Both the position numbers and the translations under genes were made by a program. A stretch of DNA of 64,000 nucleotides from Candidatus Aenigmatarchaeota archaeon (lineage in GTDB: Archaea; Aenigmatarchaeota; Aenigmatarchaeia; GW2011-AR5; JACRAC01): assembly GCA_016213555.1 (NCBI GenBank), contig JACRAC010000011.1:8841-72840 (forward strand). The letters are read 5' to 3'. Positions 7,806 through 50,860 of this stretch are shown one piece after another. The notes below the pieces were generated by a model. That model made no database searches. It was not told the origin of the DNA and saw nothing but the letters and a program-made list of their open reading frames with translations. The number at the start of each line of letters is the position of its first letter. Positions within the stretch are counted from its first letter, which is position 1.

Positions 7806-9637
7806 TGTTTTACCTTATAGATTTTTACATATGTTTTACCATTGTTTGTATAGTTCCAGGCTTCTTCTAAATAACTGTCTAGTCCTTGATTCCATGGTTT
7901 ATTGAAGTCTCTATAATTTTCTGGACCTACTACCAGCAGATTGTATTTTTTGATTTCAGGACCTTTTATTGCAGGATCTATCCAAGTATTTAGGACAGTA
8001 AATGTTATGTTATATTTATTAAGATAATTTCTATAATCTTTAACATCTTTTACTATTATTGGATCAAAAGATCCTACAAGTTCACCGTTTTCATTAATTT
8101 GGTACTCGCTTTGTATCCAATAATAACTCCAGTAAAGATACTTTACATCGTATTTATCTAACAATTCTTTTCTTTTTGAAGAATCATTTCCGTATAGTAT
8201 TATTGCTGAGTCTGCTTCTAGTTGATCGATGTCTATAAATGGGCTATTTTGGCTACGTCTTGATACCATTACTTTTCGTCCAGTTAATCCATTAAGTGCA
8301 AAGGATAATTCTTTTGTAGACAAAAATATATCGTCAACAGATGTGTTGTTAAGAACCCATTCTCTTGTTTGTATCAAATCTTCTGATAACGGATTCTTAC
8401 CTACATTTATCCACTGATCCTTCTGGACCCTTTGATTGAAATCCATATAGTAAAATCCTGTAGTGATTAAAAGAACTATTATGACTAGAGGGAAGAAATA
8501 TTTAGTAATTTTCTTTTCTAGAAACTCTAATGATATAGTTGTTAACAGTATTGTTGAGAAAGGTATTAGAAATTCAAACGCTTTTCCTGAAGAGAAGTTT
8601 GTTTTAATCAATGGTTGTGTGATCAGATAGTGGAGTGTAATTATTACTGATATCGTTATGAACATCAAAATAAATATTTTGTTGTTGAGTTCTTGCGTTG
8701 CTATCAGGTAAATTCCTATTATGGCTAGTATAGAAATTATTATTAGATTTATAGACCCAAAATTTAACAGTGCTGCTGATAAAAATCTGTATATAGTAAC
8801 TAACTGTATATCAAATCTAGACAAATCTTCGAAAGCCCAGTTTTGGTTATCATTTAGTGTAACTCCTTTATGCACAAATATTGGATTATACCACCATAAG
8901 AGTGCTATAGAGAACGCTATTACAAGTGCTATTATCATCATTGGTAGGTATTTTTTAATGTTGGTTCTTTTTGGATAGAATTCTATTATCTTTTCTCTTA
9001 TATCTATTTTTAAAACTCTATGAAACATGAAAGCAAGAAACATAAGTGTTATAAAAGATAATGAGACAAAAAATGCTGCTCCATGGGATATTGATAAAAT
9101 TCCTGCTACTATTCCAAGTATTGTTGATGATAGTATGTTTTGCTTCTTGTAGAAGTAGTATATAGAGAAAAACATTATAGGAAATAAGAAAAGTGATGTA
9201 AATTCTGTATATTTTAAAATCGGGAATGCTGATAGAGGTAAAAAGAGTATTGTTGATAACAACGCTATATTTTTGTTATTTGTTATATAACTTAATATTA
9301 GATATAAGGAAACTATGAAAAGAATTATGCATATTTGAGAAAATAAGAATATTGCTATCATTGGTTCTAGTCCAAATGTTGATCCAAAAGACGCTACTAA
9401 ATATGAGTATACAATAAAATATCCTGGCTCAGAATTTGGTATGTTAGGTGCTACTAGTGGATTGCCTCCCTCCATTATATGGGTTACTGAGCCTAACTGA
9501 AAGTAGTAATCTCCTCCGTACAGAGGTGAAGGAAGCTGGTTTAGCTGGGATATTAAATAGCTTTGTTGGAACAAGTAAAATGCTATTATCAATACAAGTA
9601 CAATTTCTTGTTTAAATTTAAAATCCATTAAGTCCAC
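7802..9637 (-). CDS. Large polytopic membrane protein with C-terminal soluble domain; putative GT-C-fold glycosyltransferase
   Basis: ~12 predicted TM helices then ~230 aa hydrophilic domain; first loop has GGDYYFQLG resembling the STT3 EL1 D-x-YF-N motif; 4-bp overlap with the GT2 gene (operon with aglB). Confidence 0.35.
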   Translation of the reverse strand: MDLMDFKFKQEIVLVLIIAFYLFQQSYLISQLNQLPSPLYGGDYYFQLGSVTHIMEGGNPLVAPNIPNSEPGYFIVYSYLVASFGSTFGLEPMIAIFLFSQICIILFIVSLYLILSYITNNKNIALLSTILFLPLSAFPILKYTEFTSLFLFPIMFFSIYYFYKKQNILSSTILGIVAGILSISHGAAFFVSLSFITLMFLAFMFHRVLKIDIREKIIEFYPKRTNIKKYLPMMIIALVIAFSIALLWWYNPIFVHKGVTLNDNQNWAFEDLSRFDIQLVTIYRFLSAALLNFGSINLIIISILAIIGIYLIATQELNNKIFILMFITISVIITLHYLITQPLIKTNFSSGKAFEFLIPFSTILLTTISLEFLEKKITKYFFPLVIIVLLITTGFYYMDFNQRVQKDQWINVGKNPLSEDLIQTREWVLNNTSVDDIFLSTKELSFALNGLTGRKVMVSRRSQNSPFIDIDQLEADSAIILYGNDSSKRKELLDKYDVKYLYWSYYWIQSEYQINENGELVGSFDPIIVKDVKDYRNYLNKYNITFTVLNTWIDPAIKGPEIKKYNLLVVGPENYRDFNKPWNQGLDSYLEEAWNYTNNGKTYVKIYKVKQ

Positions 9638-30727: not shown

Positions 30728-31792
30728 CTATATGTTTACTTGCTTCCATTCTCTTGTTGAGAAGTCTACTACAACTGGTTTGAACTCATTTAGCAAAGAT
30801 CCTGAGTTTACAACAGTAATTGATTTGTAATTGTTTACAAATGGTTTATGGTCATGACCATAATGAACTATATCTGGGACTATATCTAATGCTAGAAAAT
30901 CTTCTTTTAACAAACAATCTCCCAAATGTCTTTTTTTCAACATAGACAAATCAAAATCATGTATCATTAAAATATTGATACCTCCTATGTTAATTATTGA
31001 TGGGTTGCTTAACGATATTATATTTTCTTTTTTTGGATTAAGTGGTAATTGTGGATAGTCATCTTCTACATCCTTTTCTCCTGGTATAATAAAAACTAGT
31101 TTATTATCACAATACTTTTCTAACTTTTCCAGATCTACAACATCTCCTGCAATGAAAAGATAGTTTATATTTTCTTGGTTAAACCATTGAAAGAATTTTT
31201 CTATATCTGATTCTGGTGATTCGTTCAAATGTAAATCTGATATAAAACATCCTTTACCGTTTCCTCTTACTGGTTCTCTTAGAGGAACATCTGGATATAT
31301 TATTTTTTTGCCGTATAGAATCTTTCCAGATGGGATTGTTTGAACCAGAACTACATCATCTAAATCACATTTTACAGGATCATCAAAAGATATTGTTACT
31401 GATCCTGTTTGATCTTCTACTTCTACAAGTGTTTTTTCTCCTTCTTTAATATCTTTAACCATACCTATTATGTAGATGTCTTCTCTTGTTTGTGTTATTT
31501 TGTTTATAGATATGAATTTTTTGTCTATTCTACTTGCTAAAATATCTTTCATTTTATTGAATTTTGAGTTAAGATACTCTATCTGATTACAGGTTTCTTT
31601 TTTTGTTAAGTTTTTCACTATTTCATATCTTTTAAGAAATGTTATGTGGTTTTTCAATACAATTAGGTCTAAATCTCTTTCTAATATATTTGTTACTTCT
31701 TTATCTGAAAACCCTTCTAGATAAGACAGTGCTTCTGGTGATATTAACTTTTGTCTGGTAAAAAATAGTCTAACTAATTCTTCTTTTTTCAT
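30728..31792 (-). CDS. DNA polymerase II small subunit (DP1)-like / B-subunit-like protein: OB-fold + calcineurin-like phosphoesterase with degenerate motif III
   Basis: N-terminal region + OB-like segment (IYIIGMVKDIKEGEKTLVEVEDQTGSV) then PDE motifs I SDLHLN, II AGDVVD, III IIPGEKD (GNHD degenerate), V HYGHDH; directly downstream of orc1/cdc6 as in cdc6-dp1 arrangements. Confidence 0.55.
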   Translation of the reverse strand: MKKEELVRLFFTRQKLISPEALSYLEGFSDKEVTNILERDLDLIVLKNHITFLKRYEIVKNLTKKETCNQIEYLNSKFNKMKDILASRIDKKFISINKITQTREDIYIIGMVKDIKEGEKTLVEVEDQTGSVTISFDDPVKCDLDDVVLVQTIPSGKILYGKKIIYPDVPLREPVRGNGKGCFISDLHLNESPESDIEKFFQWFNQENINYLFIAGDVVDLEKLEKYCDNKLVFIIPGEKDVEDDYPQLPLNPKKENIISLSNPSIINIGGINILMIHDFDLSMLKKRHLGDCLLKEDFLALDIVPDIVHYGHDHKPFVNNYKSITVVNSGSLLNEFKPVVVDFSTREWKQVNI

Positions 31793-31833: not shown

Positions 31834-33087
31834 TCAATAAGAATTGATTTTTAACAAAATACCTTCTATTTTTGCTATCATCTCCTCGTTTACTGCAAAC
31901 ACAACTTCTCTAAGTTTACCATATCTGCCTCTAGAAGATATTTTTGTGTTTATTATTCCCAATGTTTCATACTCGTTGACAAGGTCGCATACTCTTCTCT
32001 GTGTTAGTGGATTGAGACCATTATTTTCACAAAGCTTGTTGTATGATTTGTAAATATCGCTTGTTAATATTCTTGAATCTATCCACTGTCCTTTGCTTGT
32101 TTTTCTAAGAGACATCATACTCTCTAACACAATTTGTGAATGTCTTGGTTGTGACCTTACTATTTCAGTAAGTTTGTCTGTATTTATTCTCTCTTTAGCC
32201 ACATCTAACTGAATCTCTGTTATTGTGGTTTGGCCTGATCTTTCGCTTATTTCTGCGGCGACTCTTATAAGGTCCAAAGCTCGGCGAGCATCACCATGCT
32301 CTTGGGCAGCTAGAGCAGCGCACTTGTTTAGTACACTATCATCTATTGTGTTTTCATAAAAAGCATCTGATATTCTCAATGATATAATGTCTTTTAACTG
32401 CTCGGCATTGTATGGTTTGAATATTATTTCTTCTTCTGCTAGAGATGAACGGACCCTAGGGTCTATTTTTTCTGCAAAATATATGTTGTTTGTTATTCCT
32501 ACAACTGAGATGTTTGAATCTGATCTTGATATGTTGTATAGGAACTCGTCTCCTATTTTATTTACCAAACAATCTATCTCATCAAAAACCAATATTATGT
32601 TTTGTTTTGATGCTTCTTCAAAAAATTTCTTATATAAAACATTGGTTGCTATTCCTGTTTCTGGAACTAACACATCAAACTCTTTTAATATCTGAGAAAG
32701 TATCCTATACTCTGTATCAGATACTTTTTTCATCTTACAGTTTATGTATATTGTTTTATACGTATTATTGGAAATTTTTGAGAGCTGTTCTAATATATAT
32801 TTTATAGTAACTGTTTTGCCGCAACCAATACCTCCATAAATAAAAACATTGCTAGGTTTGTAGCCTTTTAATATAGGAGCTAGAATAGATGATATTATTT
32901 CTATCTCAGTGTCTCTATGCACTATAGTGTTTGGTAGGAAGTTTGTTGAAAGAACTTCCCTGTTTTTAAATAAAGACTCTTTATACAAATAGTTATTAAA
33001 AATGTTTTGTACTTTATTATCCATCATTTCATTGACCGTTATTTCTGATGGAAGTTTAAAGGAAATAGACCCTACCAAACTACTCAC
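31834..33087 (-). CDS. cdc6: Orc1/Cdc6 replication initiator
   Basis: AAA+ Walker A GGIGCGKT, Walker B ILVFDEID, sensor motifs, C-terminal winged helix; 417 aa. Confidence 0.9.
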   Translation of the reverse strand: MSSLVGSISFKLPSEITVNEMMDNKVQNIFNNYLYKESLFKNREVLSTNFLPNTIVHRDTEIEIISSILAPILKGYKPSNVFIYGGIGCGKTVTIKYILEQLSKISNNTYKTIYINCKMKKVSDTEYRILSQILKEFDVLVPETGIATNVLYKKFFEEASKQNIILVFDEIDCLVNKIGDEFLYNISRSDSNISVVGITNNIYFAEKIDPRVRSSLAEEEIIFKPYNAEQLKDIISLRISDAFYENTIDDSVLNKCAALAAQEHGDARRALDLIRVAAEISERSGQTTITEIQLDVAKERINTDKLTEIVRSQPRHSQIVLESMMSLRKTSKGQWIDSRILTSDIYKSYNKLCENNGLNPLTQRRVCDLVNEYETLGIINTKISSRGRYGKLREVVFAVNEEMIAKIEGILLKINSY

Positions 33088-33413
33088 CCCAAATTAAATA
33101 TTTTAATTGTCTAAATAGAAGATTTTTAGATCTTATAAGAGACAAAAACAAACAATTTTATAAACCACTATAAAATTGCTTAACCTTTTTTGTATTAATT
33201 GGTATATAAAGTGTGTATATTTTAGAACAAATATATTTGAAAATGGTTATGACCCCTATATTTCTTTTGGAAACTACTATATAACAATATATTTAACAAT
33301 GTTATAGGAAATAGAGGTAGTTGTAAGAGAAATTTTAATTAAAATAGGTATTTTAAAAGAAATATAGGTTGTTTGTTAGTAGTTTGAAAATATTTTCTAA
33401 AAATTAAAAACAA
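33088..33413. promoter_or_regulatory. Candidate replication origin (oriC) / orc1 upstream region with ORB-like repeats and inverted 11-mer pair flanking an AT-rich stretch
   Basis: 326-bp AT-rich non-coding region immediately upstream of orc1/cdc6. CCTATATTTCT at 33254-33264 and its reverse complement AGAAATATAGG at 33359-33369. ATAGG cores at ~33256, 33306, 33345, 33364. A TGGAAAC half-ORB at 33270. Confidence 0.5.
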
Positions 33414-33815
33414 TTATTCCAAAAGAAATTTTAAACCATATACCCTCAGACCGTTTTCATTTAACATAATTTTTCTAAATGTAATTGAGACTTCTTTATC
33501 TACTAATCCTTGTGGGTTTTTTTCAACATCTTCTATATCTACACCAGTTATTTCACCAACTATCATAGGACCTTCTTCCAGTTTTATTAATGCTGTGATA
33601 TATGGTGCTTCAAATCCATCTGGTGCTACTCTAATTATAGTATCTGAATATATTTTACCCTTTCCAGATAAACCAAATTCCTCTAGTTTTTGACTATCAC
33701 AGGAAGGACAGTTTTTCCTATTTGGAAATATAACCAATCCACAATCTAGACATTTTTTACCTATCATTTTATATTTTTCTTTATTCATTCTCCAAAATAC
33801 GGGAACTGATAACAT
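33414..33815 (-). CDS. DUF35 OB-fold/zinc-ribbon scaffold protein of the archaeal thiolase/HMG-CoA synthase complex
   Basis: CLDCG...CPSC rubredoxin-like ribbon followed by OB fold; downstream of thiolase and HMGCS. Confidence 0.75.
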   Translation of the reverse strand: MLSVPVFWRMNKEKYKMIGKKCLDCGLVIFPNRKNCPSCDSQKLEEFGLSGKGKIYSDTIIRVAPDGFEAPYITALIKLEEGPMIVGEITGVDIEDVEKNPQGLVDKEVSITFRKIMLNENGLRVYGLKFLLE

Positions 33816-33826
33816 TTTAACACCGT

Positions 33827-35014
33827 TTAATCTTTACCTAATACATGGATTACTGAGGTAGTTCCTATACCACCGATGTTTAAGGCTAAGCCTTGATTGA
33901 CATTTTTTAACTGGTTTAGGGAATCTCCTCTAATTTGTTTAGTAATATCTATTAATTGACGTACACCAGTAGCTCCTACTGGATGACCTATTGATTTTAA
34001 TCCACCAGTTGTATTTGTAGGTATTTGACCGTCTAATTTTATTTCGCCTTGTTCTATAAACTTACCTCCTTTACCTTTTTCACAAAACCCTAGATCTTCT
34101 AAGGCCACCAACTCATTTATAGAGAAACAATCATGAACTTCTGTTACCCCAATGTTTTTCATATTTACTCTATCTTTTTCAATTACTCTCTTAACTGCTA
34201 GTTTTGTAGCATCTAATTCTACTATAGATCTTCTGTTAAAAAATCCTATTCTATCTGTTGCCGCAGAGCTGCTTAGTATCCAAGCTACATTATCTAACTT
34301 ATTTTTCTTAATAAATTCTTCTGAAGCTATTATTACAGAAGCAGCACCATCTGTTATTGGTGAACAATCTAAGGTTCTTAAAGGATCTGCTATAAGTGTG
34401 GATTTTTCTACATCTTCTATAGTAATCTCTCCTCTAAACTGTGCATAAGGATTTTTAACACCGTTTTTGTGGTTATTTACTGAGATTAAGGAAAGTTGGT
34501 TTCTTGTTGTTCCAAATTCTTTCATATGTCTTCTAGCCATTAAGGCATATAATCCTGTAAATGTAAGGCCTGCTAAAGATTCCCATTCAAAATCACCTGC
34601 TTCCATTAAAGCGTTTAAAACATGATTAGAATCAATATCAGTCATTTTTTCTATTCCTAATACCATTGCAACATCCATTTCACCAGATTTTATTGTGTGA
34701 AACGCATGTCTGAATGCAAGAGCTCCTGAAGAACAAGCACCTTCACAACGAACAGCTGGTACACCTGTAATACCTACATAGTCTGATACTAAAGATCCTA
34801 AATGGCTTTGTTTTGCCATTGATCCTGCACCCATGTTCCCAACAAAAAGACCCTCTATATTTTTCTTGGTTATATTTCCTTTTGTCTGAGTATCAAGATC
34901 TTTGAAAACTGCGTTACCCGCATCTACAGCTAAATCTCTTAAAGAATGTTCCCAAAGCTCACCAAATTTACTTTGTCCAACTGCAACTATTCCTACACGT
35001 GTCATAACAATCAA
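33827..35014 (-). CDS. Acetyl-CoA C-acetyltransferase (archaeal thiolase)
   Basis: 395 aa thiolase fold with catalytic Cys region (VRCEGACSSGALA), C-terminal GHPVGATG and catalytic His/Cys region. Confidence 0.88.
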   Translation of the reverse strand: MIVMTRVGIVAVGQSKFGELWEHSLRDLAVDAGNAVFKDLDTQTKGNITKKNIEGLFVGNMGAGSMAKQSHLGSLVSDYVGITGVPAVRCEGACSSGALAFRHAFHTIKSGEMDVAMVLGIEKMTDIDSNHVLNALMEAGDFEWESLAGLTFTGLYALMARRHMKEFGTTRNQLSLISVNNHKNGVKNPYAQFRGEITIEDVEKSTLIADPLRTLDCSPITDGAASVIIASEEFIKKNKLDNVAWILSSSAATDRIGFFNRRSIVELDATKLAVKRVIEKDRVNMKNIGVTEVHDCFSINELVALEDLGFCEKGKGGKFIEQGEIKLDGQIPTNTTGGLKSIGHPVGATGVRQLIDITKQIRGDSLNQLKNVNQGLALNIGGIGTTSVIHVLGKD

Positions 35015-49694: not shown

Positions 49695-50860
49695 TAATGA
49701 AATCAGACAACTATTCTTATAAAGTTCGTTTAAATGTTAGATTTGGATTTGGTATTTGTAGAAATATAGGAGAATATTTGAAAAAATCTGGTTTAAACAA
49801 CGTAGGATTTATAATAGATAGAGGTGTTTTTTCTTCTGAACCTGTAAAAGCTATGATAAAATCTGCGCAAGACCATTGCTCTGTAAATAAAGTATACGAA
49901 TGTAGCTTAGTCGAACCTACATATGATGAACTAGATGCTATTACAGAAGAATTTAGAAACCAAAAATTCGATGTAATAATAGGAGTAGGAGGAGGAAGTA
50001 TTATGGATACAGCAAAAGGAGTTTGCGCTCTTATTACAAATCCTGGAAAGGGGATTCAATATAGAGGGTTTGATTTATTGAAAAATAATCCAATACATAT
50101 GATAGCTGTTCCTACAACTGCAGGTACTGGAAGTGAAGTTACTCCAAACGCAGTTTTCACAGATAGTAATGAACAGAGAAAATTAGGTATTAATGGAGAT
50201 AAAATGTTTGCTTACATGTCTTTTCTAGATCCAGAACTTACTATGACATGTCCAAAAAGACCTACTGTATCATCTGGCATGGATGCAATTGTACATACTT
50301 TGGAAAGCTTTGGATCTATTGCAGCAACACCATTTTCTAGAATGTATTCTAGAGAAGCTTTTAGGCTACTTTTTAATTCACTACCTAAGTTAGTGGATAA
50401 CATGAATGATAAAGATCTTAGATCAAAAATGCTTTTAGGAAGCCATTATGCTGGAATAGCTTTGTTTAATGCTAGTGCGGGGCCTTCTGGAGCACTATCA
50501 TATCCGTTAGGAGTTTTATTTAAGGTTCCTCACGGAATTGCAGGAGCGGTCTTTTTGCCAAAGGTTCTAAGAAAAAACGTGGAGATGGGGTATTATGGAT
50601 ATTCAGAGTTGTACGATCTTATTGATGGTGCAAACATGTCTCTTTCTGAAAAAGAAAAAGCATTTGCATTTTGTGATGCTTTAGATACTTTATGTAATAA
50701 AGTTGAGATTCCTGACAAGCTTACTGTTTTTGGTGTTACAGAAAATGATATAGATATACTTCATAAACAAACGGTCACTGGGTTGAAGGCTGCAATAGAT
50801 CATAATCCAGTGAAATTTGAAGATAAACATATTAGAGAAATACTAGAAAATATGATCTAA
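49691..50860 (+). CDS. Iron-containing alcohol dehydrogenase family oxidoreductase
   Basis: GGGSIMDTAKG dinucleotide/metal motif, His-rich C-terminal helical domain (HTLESF..., HYAGIAL), 389 aa. Confidence 0.75.
   Translation: MIMKSDNYSYKVRLNVRFGFGICRNIGEYLKKSGLNNVGFIIDRGVFSSEPVKAMIKSAQDHCSVNKVYECSLVEPTYDELDAITEEFRNQKFDVIIGVGGGSIMDTAKGVCALITNPGKGIQYRGFDLLKNNPIHMIAVPTTAGTGSEVTPNAVFTDSNEQRKLGINGDKMFAYMSFLDPELTMTCPKRPTVSSGMDAIVHTLESFGSIAATPFSRMYSREAFRLLFNSLPKLVDNMNDKDLRSKMLLGSHYAGIALFNASAGPSGALSYPLGVLFKVPHGIAGAVFLPKVLRKNVEMGYYGYSELYDLIDGANMSLSEKEKAFAFCDALDTLCNKVEIPDKLTVFGVTENDIDILHKQTVTGLKAAIDHNPVKFEDKHIREILENMI

Follow-up and report, generated by a model that had tools for sequence, protein, structure and literature searches.

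The ORB elements of described archaeal origins share a TTCC core, a GAA(A) core and a GGGGT G-string (PMC1868953, PMC1904270, PMC4164010). The TTCC and GAA cores are invariant, and in Pyrococcus, mutating these core motifs lowers binding (PMC1904270). A common motif, TCCA-GAAAC, accompanied by the GGGGT G-string, has also been described (PMC4164010), and the euryarchaeal consensus reads GTTCCAGTGGAAAC-AAA-GGGGG (PMC1868953). The genes orc1 and dp1 form the context of such origins at oriC (PMC1904270, PMC1868953). In Sulfolobus, the unwinding element additionally contains the ucm, an essential short motif bound by the protein UBP, which is reportedly a recent acquisition, confined to Sulfolobales and Desulfurococcales; its discoverers asked whether other archaeal lineages hold equivalents (PMC12141716). 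Both the ORB-type oriC and Cdc6 are dispensable in Thermococcus kodakarensis (PMC5663688), and the presence of such elements is therefore no proof of their use.

We found no description of a DPANN replication origin in the literature that we searched. The DPANN archaea are mostly uncultured. Here we describe a 64-kb stretch of DNA (the window) from a small-celled archaeon of the Aenigmarchaeota (DPANN), in which the gap at 33079-33413, next to an orc1/cdc6 gene, very probably represents an Orc1/Cdc6-dependent chromosomal replication origin of the oriC1 type, judging from its sequence and from that of related loci. Its layout resembles that of Sulfolobus oriC1, in which inverted ORBs with G-strings surround an AT-rich spacer beside the initiator gene; in the window, one of the two opposed ORBs is canonical and the other degenerate. 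A sequence-only reading of the window had already suggested a chromosomal oriC of the ORB-DUE-ORB type at this place, and five lines of evidence now agree on it: an ORB of canonical form with no second in the window, its recurrence ahead of orc1 in most of 82 related DPANN loci, an orthologous inverted partner, an initiator of the Orc1-1 type, and a switch in strand composition. The origin call covers 64 kb of the replicon, and the uniqueness of the ORB likewise applies within those 64 kb.

The gap beside orc1/cdc6 and its ORB-type elements

The block at 33088-33413 had been described as a 326-bp AT-rich, non-coding sequence 5' of orc1/cdc6, and this description is borne out. Its GC content is 20.2%, compared to 31.3% for the whole window, and it contains no ORF of at least 50 aa. 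ORFs of 20-43 aa within the gap were rejected as spurious, being overlapping and of low complexity, and an Rfam scan of the entire window at gathering thresholds returned no match, and thus no RNA gene that would account for the block. Both neighbours of the block are encoded on the minus strand: the start of orc1/cdc6 lies on one side, and on the other is the stop codon of a DUF35/ChsH2-type gene (identified by Pfam), the last gene of an operon that also includes thiolase and HMG-CoA synthase. The T-runs that follow this stop codon (Table 1) are likely the terminator of this upstream mevalonate-pathway operon, an assignment that applies the oligo-T terminator rule known in archaea. In three related loci (L082, L084 and L086, at ~8445-9257), three small ORFs of 97, 58 and 71 aa, none with a Pfam match, are inserted between the thiolase and DUF35 genes; the insertion is absent from the window (33815-33827) and from L083.

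The orc1 gene probably starts at the TTG at 33078, which predicts a protein of 414 aa, the same length as the NCBI gene call (P0001); the longest ORF begins at a GTG at 33087. A Shine-Dalgarno-like GGGGTGA, separated by 5 nt from the TTG, is kept in loci L002 and L003. Orthologous Orc1 proteins range from 401 to 442 aa in public gene calls. The solved structures that match the window Orc1 best are S. solfataricus Cdc6-1/Orc1-1 (2QBY_A, 3e-93) and A. pernix ORC1 (2V1U, 1e-77), both of them initiators that were crystallised on ORB DNA, while matches to Cdc6-3 (3e-44) and ORC2 (7e-11) are far weaker. By these structure matches, the window Orc1 falls in the Orc1-1/Cdc6-1 clade, as a cognate initiator should. 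The protein is identical to one from an NCBI "Candidatus Aenigmarchaeota" genome bin, its relatives are DPANN archaea throughout, and no orc1 paralogue was found in the 64-kb window. The order of orc1 and the DP1-like gene is kept in L001 and L082-L086. The candidate promoter box was assigned on the basis of the archaeal TATA consensus, and the block around it, CACACTTTATATA, is kept in five lineages. Between this box and the orc1 start, positions 33150-33181 comprise a hairpin or palindrome of 12 to 13 bp (AAACAATTTTATA/TATAAAATTGCTT). L082 retains it, with a single compensatory pair (C-G to T-A), and the GTGGTT loop is conserved.

Table 1. Coordinates of the gap, its candidate origin elements and the adjacent genes (window positions).
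Feature	Position	Strand	Basis
DP1-like gene (DNA polymerase D small subunit), the next one downstream of orc1	30728..31792	-	Pfam Metallophos_2, weaker DNA_pol_E_B
orc1/cdc6 initiator gene, Orc1-1 type	31834..33078	-	Pfam Cdc6_C, Cdc6_lid, AAA
Mini-ORB TTCCATCAGAAAT, in first codons of orc1, ORB-a orientation	33041..33053	-	exact mini-ORB match
Candidate TATA box TTTATATA of the orc1 promoter, in the stretch from ORB-a to the gene	33203..33210	-	conserved block
ORB-a, canonical full ORB TTCCAAAAGAAATATAGGGG(T), orc1 orientation	33253..33272	-	sole exact pattern match
AT-rich spacer between opposed ORBs, candidate duplex-unwinding element, 78 bp, 20% GC	33273..33350	.	nearest-neighbour stability
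Conserved palindrome, core TAACAATGTTA at 33294-33304	33291..33307	.	de novo enrichment
ORB-b, hybrid ORB-like element TGTTATAGGAAATAGAGGTAG	33300..33320	+	conservation
ORB-c, degenerate inverted ORB TTTTAAAAGAAATATAGGTT, holds right arm of the 14-mer repeat	33351..33370	+	alignment, orthology
Two T5 runs right after DUF35 stop codon	33396..33413	-	read from sequence
Mini-ORB TTCCAAAAGAAAT, overlaps last codons of upstream DUF35 gene	33417..33429	+	exact TTCCAN3GAAA

The pattern TTCCAN3GAAAN4GGGG has a single exact match in the 64 kb, the element that we designate ORB-a (TTCCAAAAGAAATATAGGGGT). Of its 20 positions, 15 agree with the published consensus, and every conserved part is among them. 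A full-ORB weight matrix, trained exclusively on loci outside the window's clade, scored ORB-a at 26.1 bits, compared to 10.3 bits for the next best site in the window, and the element is unchanged in five lineages, down to 73% Orc1 identity. The sequence-only reading had divided this one element, treating an 11-mer arm and a TGGAAAC "half-ORB" as separate features. The TGGAAAC is indeed present, at 33268-33274, but it is part of a full ORB: on the minus strand, it and the left 11-mer arm join as TTCCAAAAGAAATATAGGGGT. The accompanying proposal of a lineage-specific ORB is not supported, as this motif carries all of the conserved published parts (TTCC, GAA(A) and the GGGGT G-string).

Degenerate copies go unscored by the weight matrix, since the search pattern had already set its core columns. 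It was therefore rejected for judging them, and alignment and orthology were used instead. These identified ORB-c, which faces ORB-a and is the same at 16 of 20 positions. The changes are CC>TT and GG>TT; ORB-c has thus lost the CC of its TTCC and half of its G-string, leaving ORB-a as the only canonical copy. ORB-c is kept among close relatives, and its counterpart in L002 (73% Orc1 identity) is still canonical (TTCCAAAAGAAGTGGGGG). The third element, ORB-b, is the most conserved intergenic block in five lineages (ACCyyTATTTCyTATAACA on the orc1 strand), and its pattern, TGTTA-TAr-GAAr-TAnn-GGT, is also present in the Aenigmarchaeota loci L009, L013, L023, L030, L038 and L064.

Exact matches to the shorter pattern TTCCAN3GAAA number five in the window, where 1.4 would be expected, and three of the five lie within 33042-33428. 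The mini-ORB in the first codons of orc1 scored 5.2 bits on the full-ORB matrix; its DNA is identical in L002, L003 and L082-L086, third codon positions included. An inverted mini-ORB-like sequence (GTTTCCTTTAAA) abuts it, also in the first codons of orc1, and the DNA that holds the two (33041-33067, minus strand) is conserved at third codon positions as well, down to 73% Orc1 identity. Judging from sequence, the TTCCATCAGAAAT/GTTTCCTTTAAA pair may be an additional Orc1 site or an autoregulatory operator.

The region therefore has one canonical ORB, one opposed but degenerate copy, one hybrid copy and two mini-ORBs. The polarity of the ORBs places the TTCCA...GAAA parts inward and the G-strings outward. 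By nearest-neighbour stability, the spacer that they enclose ranks among the least stable 0.1-0.3% of window positions, a property that is supportive only, as five other places in the window are at least as unstable.

The same elements recur across a comparative set of 82 non-redundant related DPANN loci. The 500-bp regions upstream of orc1, 40.6 kb in total, contain 64 occurrences of TTCCAN3GAAAN4GGGG, and the other 681 kb contain 14, which makes the pattern ~77 times denser upstream of orc1 than elsewhere. Nearly all of the upstream ORBs have the orientation of orc1, the T that follows GGGG is 93% conserved, and many of the loci have an inverted ORB partner 105-125 bp further upstream. The intergenic arrangement adjacent to orc1 recurs on independent contigs. 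Contigs with an 88-92% identical Orc1 have the same gene order, and within a gap that is otherwise diverging, they have kept ORB-c, the block ACCyyTATTTCyTATAACAwTGTTAA, ORB-a, the TTTATATA box, and the ribosome-binding site and start codon. In L002 and L003, at 73% identity, ORB-a and the central block are unchanged.

Several related loci have features of their own. Some DPANN loci have a second, intergenic ORB cluster, which follows an orc1 operon of three genes and is 2-5 kb downstream of orc1 itself (L031, 7366-7485; L077, 7439-7551; L046, 7444-7563; L076, 9046-9126; L080, 9072-9091; L069, 6290-6309). The G-strings of these clusters point inward, or the ORBs are direct repeats; they are reminiscent of Thermococcales, where cdc6 has an ORB cluster on either side, and the window has no such second cluster. 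The ORBs of Nanohaloarchaeota (L043, L052, L054 and L060, for example) end in an extended GGGGTGGGGG, which resembles the "halophile-specific G-string" of haloarchaea (PMC1868953), though the hosts are DPANN. Two records placed in bacterial bins, L059 (titled Colwellia polaris) and L070 (Saccharibacteria), contain a DPANN-type orc1 with an ORB-palindrome origin, and this placement is probably binning contamination.

Strand composition and alternative readings

A GC-skew extremum at the gap had been put forward as a check on the origin. After correction for gene strand, GC skew has no breakpoint there: the raw cumulative curve tracks gene direction, with a minimum near 39 kb, the best breakpoint of GC3 skew, at 45.5 kb, is weak, and GC skew is null in the pooled loci. 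Some archaea are known in which GC skew does not work (PMC4640148). We regard it as uninformative here and rejected it as a test, and the origin reading is not rejected thereby.

Third-codon T-A skew gave a different picture. With skew modelled per gene and transcription strand included as a covariate, the best breakpoint fell exactly between orc1 and the next gene, reducing the residual sum of squares to 0.587 of that of the model with no breakpoint. None of 2000 gene permutations, and five of 2000 permutations of four-gene blocks, did as well. When the 82 loci were pooled, the switch was -0.060 (t=-7.7, p=7e-14), equal in sign and size to that of the window; it persisted when orc1 itself was omitted (-0.061, t=-7.3), and the best pooled breakpoint was again the point upstream of orc1. 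The asymmetry is an excess of A over T on the presumed leading strand. Replication-associated asymmetry in these DPANN genomes thus shows up in third-codon T/A composition and not in GC skew.

This switch bears on the rival explanation that survives best, although we consider it improbable: that the ORB-type sites serve Orc1 only as operators for control of the orc1 promoter, or that they are the relic of an origin that no longer fires. The geometry is compatible with such a role, in that ORB-a lies ~45 nt upstream of the conserved putative TATA box and further mini-ORBs extend over the region of the orc1 start. In addition, a single ORB is intact, and T. kodakarensis provides the precedent of a dispensable ORB-type origin (PMC5663688). 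However, the third-position T/A skew flips both here and across the related loci, which needs long-term use of the site as a replication landmark, and the conservation of the layout of opposed ORBs, spacer and palindrome far exceeds the needs of an operator at a promoter. As autoregulation and origin function coexist in known systems, an operator role would be more an addition to an origin than an alternative to one.

A second rival reading takes the inverted repeat itself as the functional unit. The pair of inverted 11-mers from which this reading derives does exist, but its coordinates had been off by one, and the repeat is really a perfect 14-mer (CCTATATTTCTTTT, 33255-33268; AAAAGAAATATAGG, 33355-33368) with 86 nt between its arms. 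A second perfect inverted repeat, a 13-mer, overlaps it (ATTTCTTTTGGAA, 33260-33272; TTCCAAAAGAAAT, 33417-33429), formed by ORB-a and the mini-ORB at the DUF35 gene. Dinucleotide shuffles of the block produced a perfect inverted repeat of at least 14 nt in 0.85% of cases, and none of the 326-bp tiles elsewhere in the window had one that reached 13. Arms 86 nt apart do not make a terminator hairpin, and a cruciform or hairpin of the 14-mer arms was rejected (single-strand folding z-score of only -2.1, ensemble frequency 0.0002). On the evidence of the 64 kb, the 11-mer is not a genome-wide repeat: it has only one further copy there, at 49760, which was discounted as a chance match within a coding gene. 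Two of three reported ATAGG(A/T)A cores are exact (33304 and 33344), while the third is the right arm itself (ATAGGTT, 33364); each of these cores belongs to a degenerate ORB copy, of which it forms the 3' half (GAAAT-A-N-A-GG).

A perfect 14-mer inverted repeat is rare by chance, which could suggest that a lineage-specific repeat of 11 to 14 nt (CCTATATTTCT), distinct from the classical ORB, is the working element. We find this very improbable. The unit that relatives have kept is TTCCA-N3-GAAA-N4-GGGGT and not the 14-mer, whose spacer bases vary (ATATA, ACAAA, ACAAG, ATAAA) while TTCC, GAAA and GGGG are fixed. The 14-mer is no more than the stretch that ORB-a and the decayed ORB-c still have in common.

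Least probable of all is a replication terminus or a recombination or assembly junction, with the repeats incidental to an AT-rich promoter/terminator gap. In its favour, a skew switch alone fits a terminus as well as an origin, its sign is not the common bacterial one, and the gap does have a terminator-like T-run and a putative promoter. Against it, a terminus would not accompany orc1 and ORBs throughout a set of 82 loci that spans several DPANN lineages, composition comes nowhere near to explaining the ORB enrichment, and synteny across the gap on independent contigs from four data sources argues against misassembly. A switch tied to orc1 and ORBs in many lineages fits an origin.

A conserved palindrome in the spacer

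A de novo search for 8-mers enriched upstream of orc1 returned the G-strings and, as the top non-ORB motif, a palindrome with the family consensus (A/T)TATAACA-N-TGTTATA(T/C). Of its core, 67 copies lie within 500 bp upstream of orc1, compared to 10 in ~640 kb elsewhere. It typically lies 70-300 nt upstream of orc1 (L002-L083) and is nearly invariant in alignment A2. Its spacing to the ORB is also constrained: an ORB begins 32-39 nt downstream of 42 of the 77 palindrome copies, and 46 of the 77 lie between an inverted mini-ORB and an ORB. The copy in the window is unique there and is 32 nt from ORB-a. In the window's clade, a palindrome half-site is fused to an ORB-like tail, which creates the hybrid ORB-b (TGTTATAGGAAATAGAGGTAG); the palindrome's right half supplies the first five bases of this element. 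Nanohaloarchaeota have tandem arrays of related half-palindromes; L065 has at least six exact cores plus variants. We rejected the palindrome as the marker of a regulon, as its non-origin copies lie near genes too mixed to form one (TctA, twice; NAC; HTH_3/Hjc; PolB).

The literature that we searched contained no match to the palindrome strings in an archaeal context. We tentatively propose, as a possibility that falls somewhat short of an even chance, that the palindrome is a second, undescribed cis-element of origins in DPANN archaea (Aenigmarchaeota, Nanohaloarchaeota and allied lineages). Its ligand would be either a dimeric accessory factor or Orc1 itself, using a second mode of binding, and the pair would be a functional parallel to the ucm and UBP. 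As UBP is limited to Sulfolobales and Desulfurococcales, any protein that binds the palindrome here would be a different one. A less novel alternative is that the palindrome could be a promoter or regulator site for orc1.

Proposed mechanism and comparison with described origins

Based on the observed elements, their polarity, conservation and enrichment, and the composition switch, we infer by analogy that Orc1 binding, unwinding, MCM loading and firing would take place at the gap. The Orc1-1-type initiator would be supplied by the adjacent gene. Its monomers, each with a fixed polarity, would bind the strong ORB-a and the opposed, weaker ORB-c and ORB-b, and the outlying mini-ORBs at 33417 and 33041 may be further Orc1 sites. 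By analogy with the Sulfolobus and Aeropyrum initiators, the winged helix would contact TTCCA...GAAA, and the initiator-specific motif of the ATPase domain would contact the G-string. The occupied sites would bracket the 78-bp, 20% GC spacer and distort the DNA there; Orc1 would then recruit the MCM helicase, to be loaded at the spacer, and bidirectional replication would start. The palindrome, whose distance from the strong ORB is fixed, may be a binding site for an accessory dimer or the point of loading or melting. Because ORB-a is just upstream of the candidate orc1 TATA box, the initiator bound to it may also feed back on orc1 transcription.

DPANN archaea appear to use the classical grammar of ORB and Orc1-1 origins. 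The ORB pattern, the palindrome and third-codon T/A skew (rather than GC skew) can be combined to locate origins in fragmentary metagenome assemblies, and knowing the location of an origin allows growth rates to be estimated from read depth and closed genomes to be oriented correctly. The palindrome could also serve as bait for a protein that assists the origin in a lineage without the Sulfolobus UBP. The origin in the window is what a specialist would expect; the palindrome and the T/A-skew signature are worth pursuing.

Among the closest described counterparts is oriC1 of Sulfolobus (Saccharolobus), in which ORB3, the DUE with its ucm, and ORB2 are arrayed by orc1-1; its initiator is the closest solved relative of the window Orc1 (2QBY_A). 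The cores are similar in size, 118 bp in the window and ~130 bp in Sulfolobus oriC1 (PMC12141716), and both have a short conserved motif inside the spacer. They differ in that the window has only one intact ORB, and in the spacer motif, which is the palindrome TAACA-N-TGTTA in the window and an 11-bp ucm (ATTATACAAAC, taken from the oligonucleotides in PMC12141716) in Sulfolobus. The likeness between TAACAATGTTA and the ucm is therefore one of position and possible role, not of sequence.

The oriC of Pyrococcus abyssi and P. furiosus is larger, with many mini-ORBs and a second ORB cluster in dp1; a search of the window dp1 with the weight matrix and the mini-ORB pattern found no such cluster. 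The gene order is nonetheless the same, with the origin followed by orc1/cdc6 and the PolD small subunit. As in the window, where one of the opposed long ORBs is degenerate, the Pyrococcus origin combines inverted long ORBs with extra 13-bp mini-ORBs that share the TTCC/GAA cores (PMC1904270), and in both, mini-ORBs reach into the neighbouring coding sequence. The haloarchaeal origin is more elaborate, exceeding 1 kb with many repeats and a second, halophile-specific G-string, whereas the ORB in the window has a single GGGGT. Haloferax volcanii oriC1 otherwise resembles the window in its mini-ORB plus G-string grammar, in having orc1 and dp1 nearby, in the same order, and in the placement of its ORBs around an unwinding element, for which the window has a candidate (PMC1868953).
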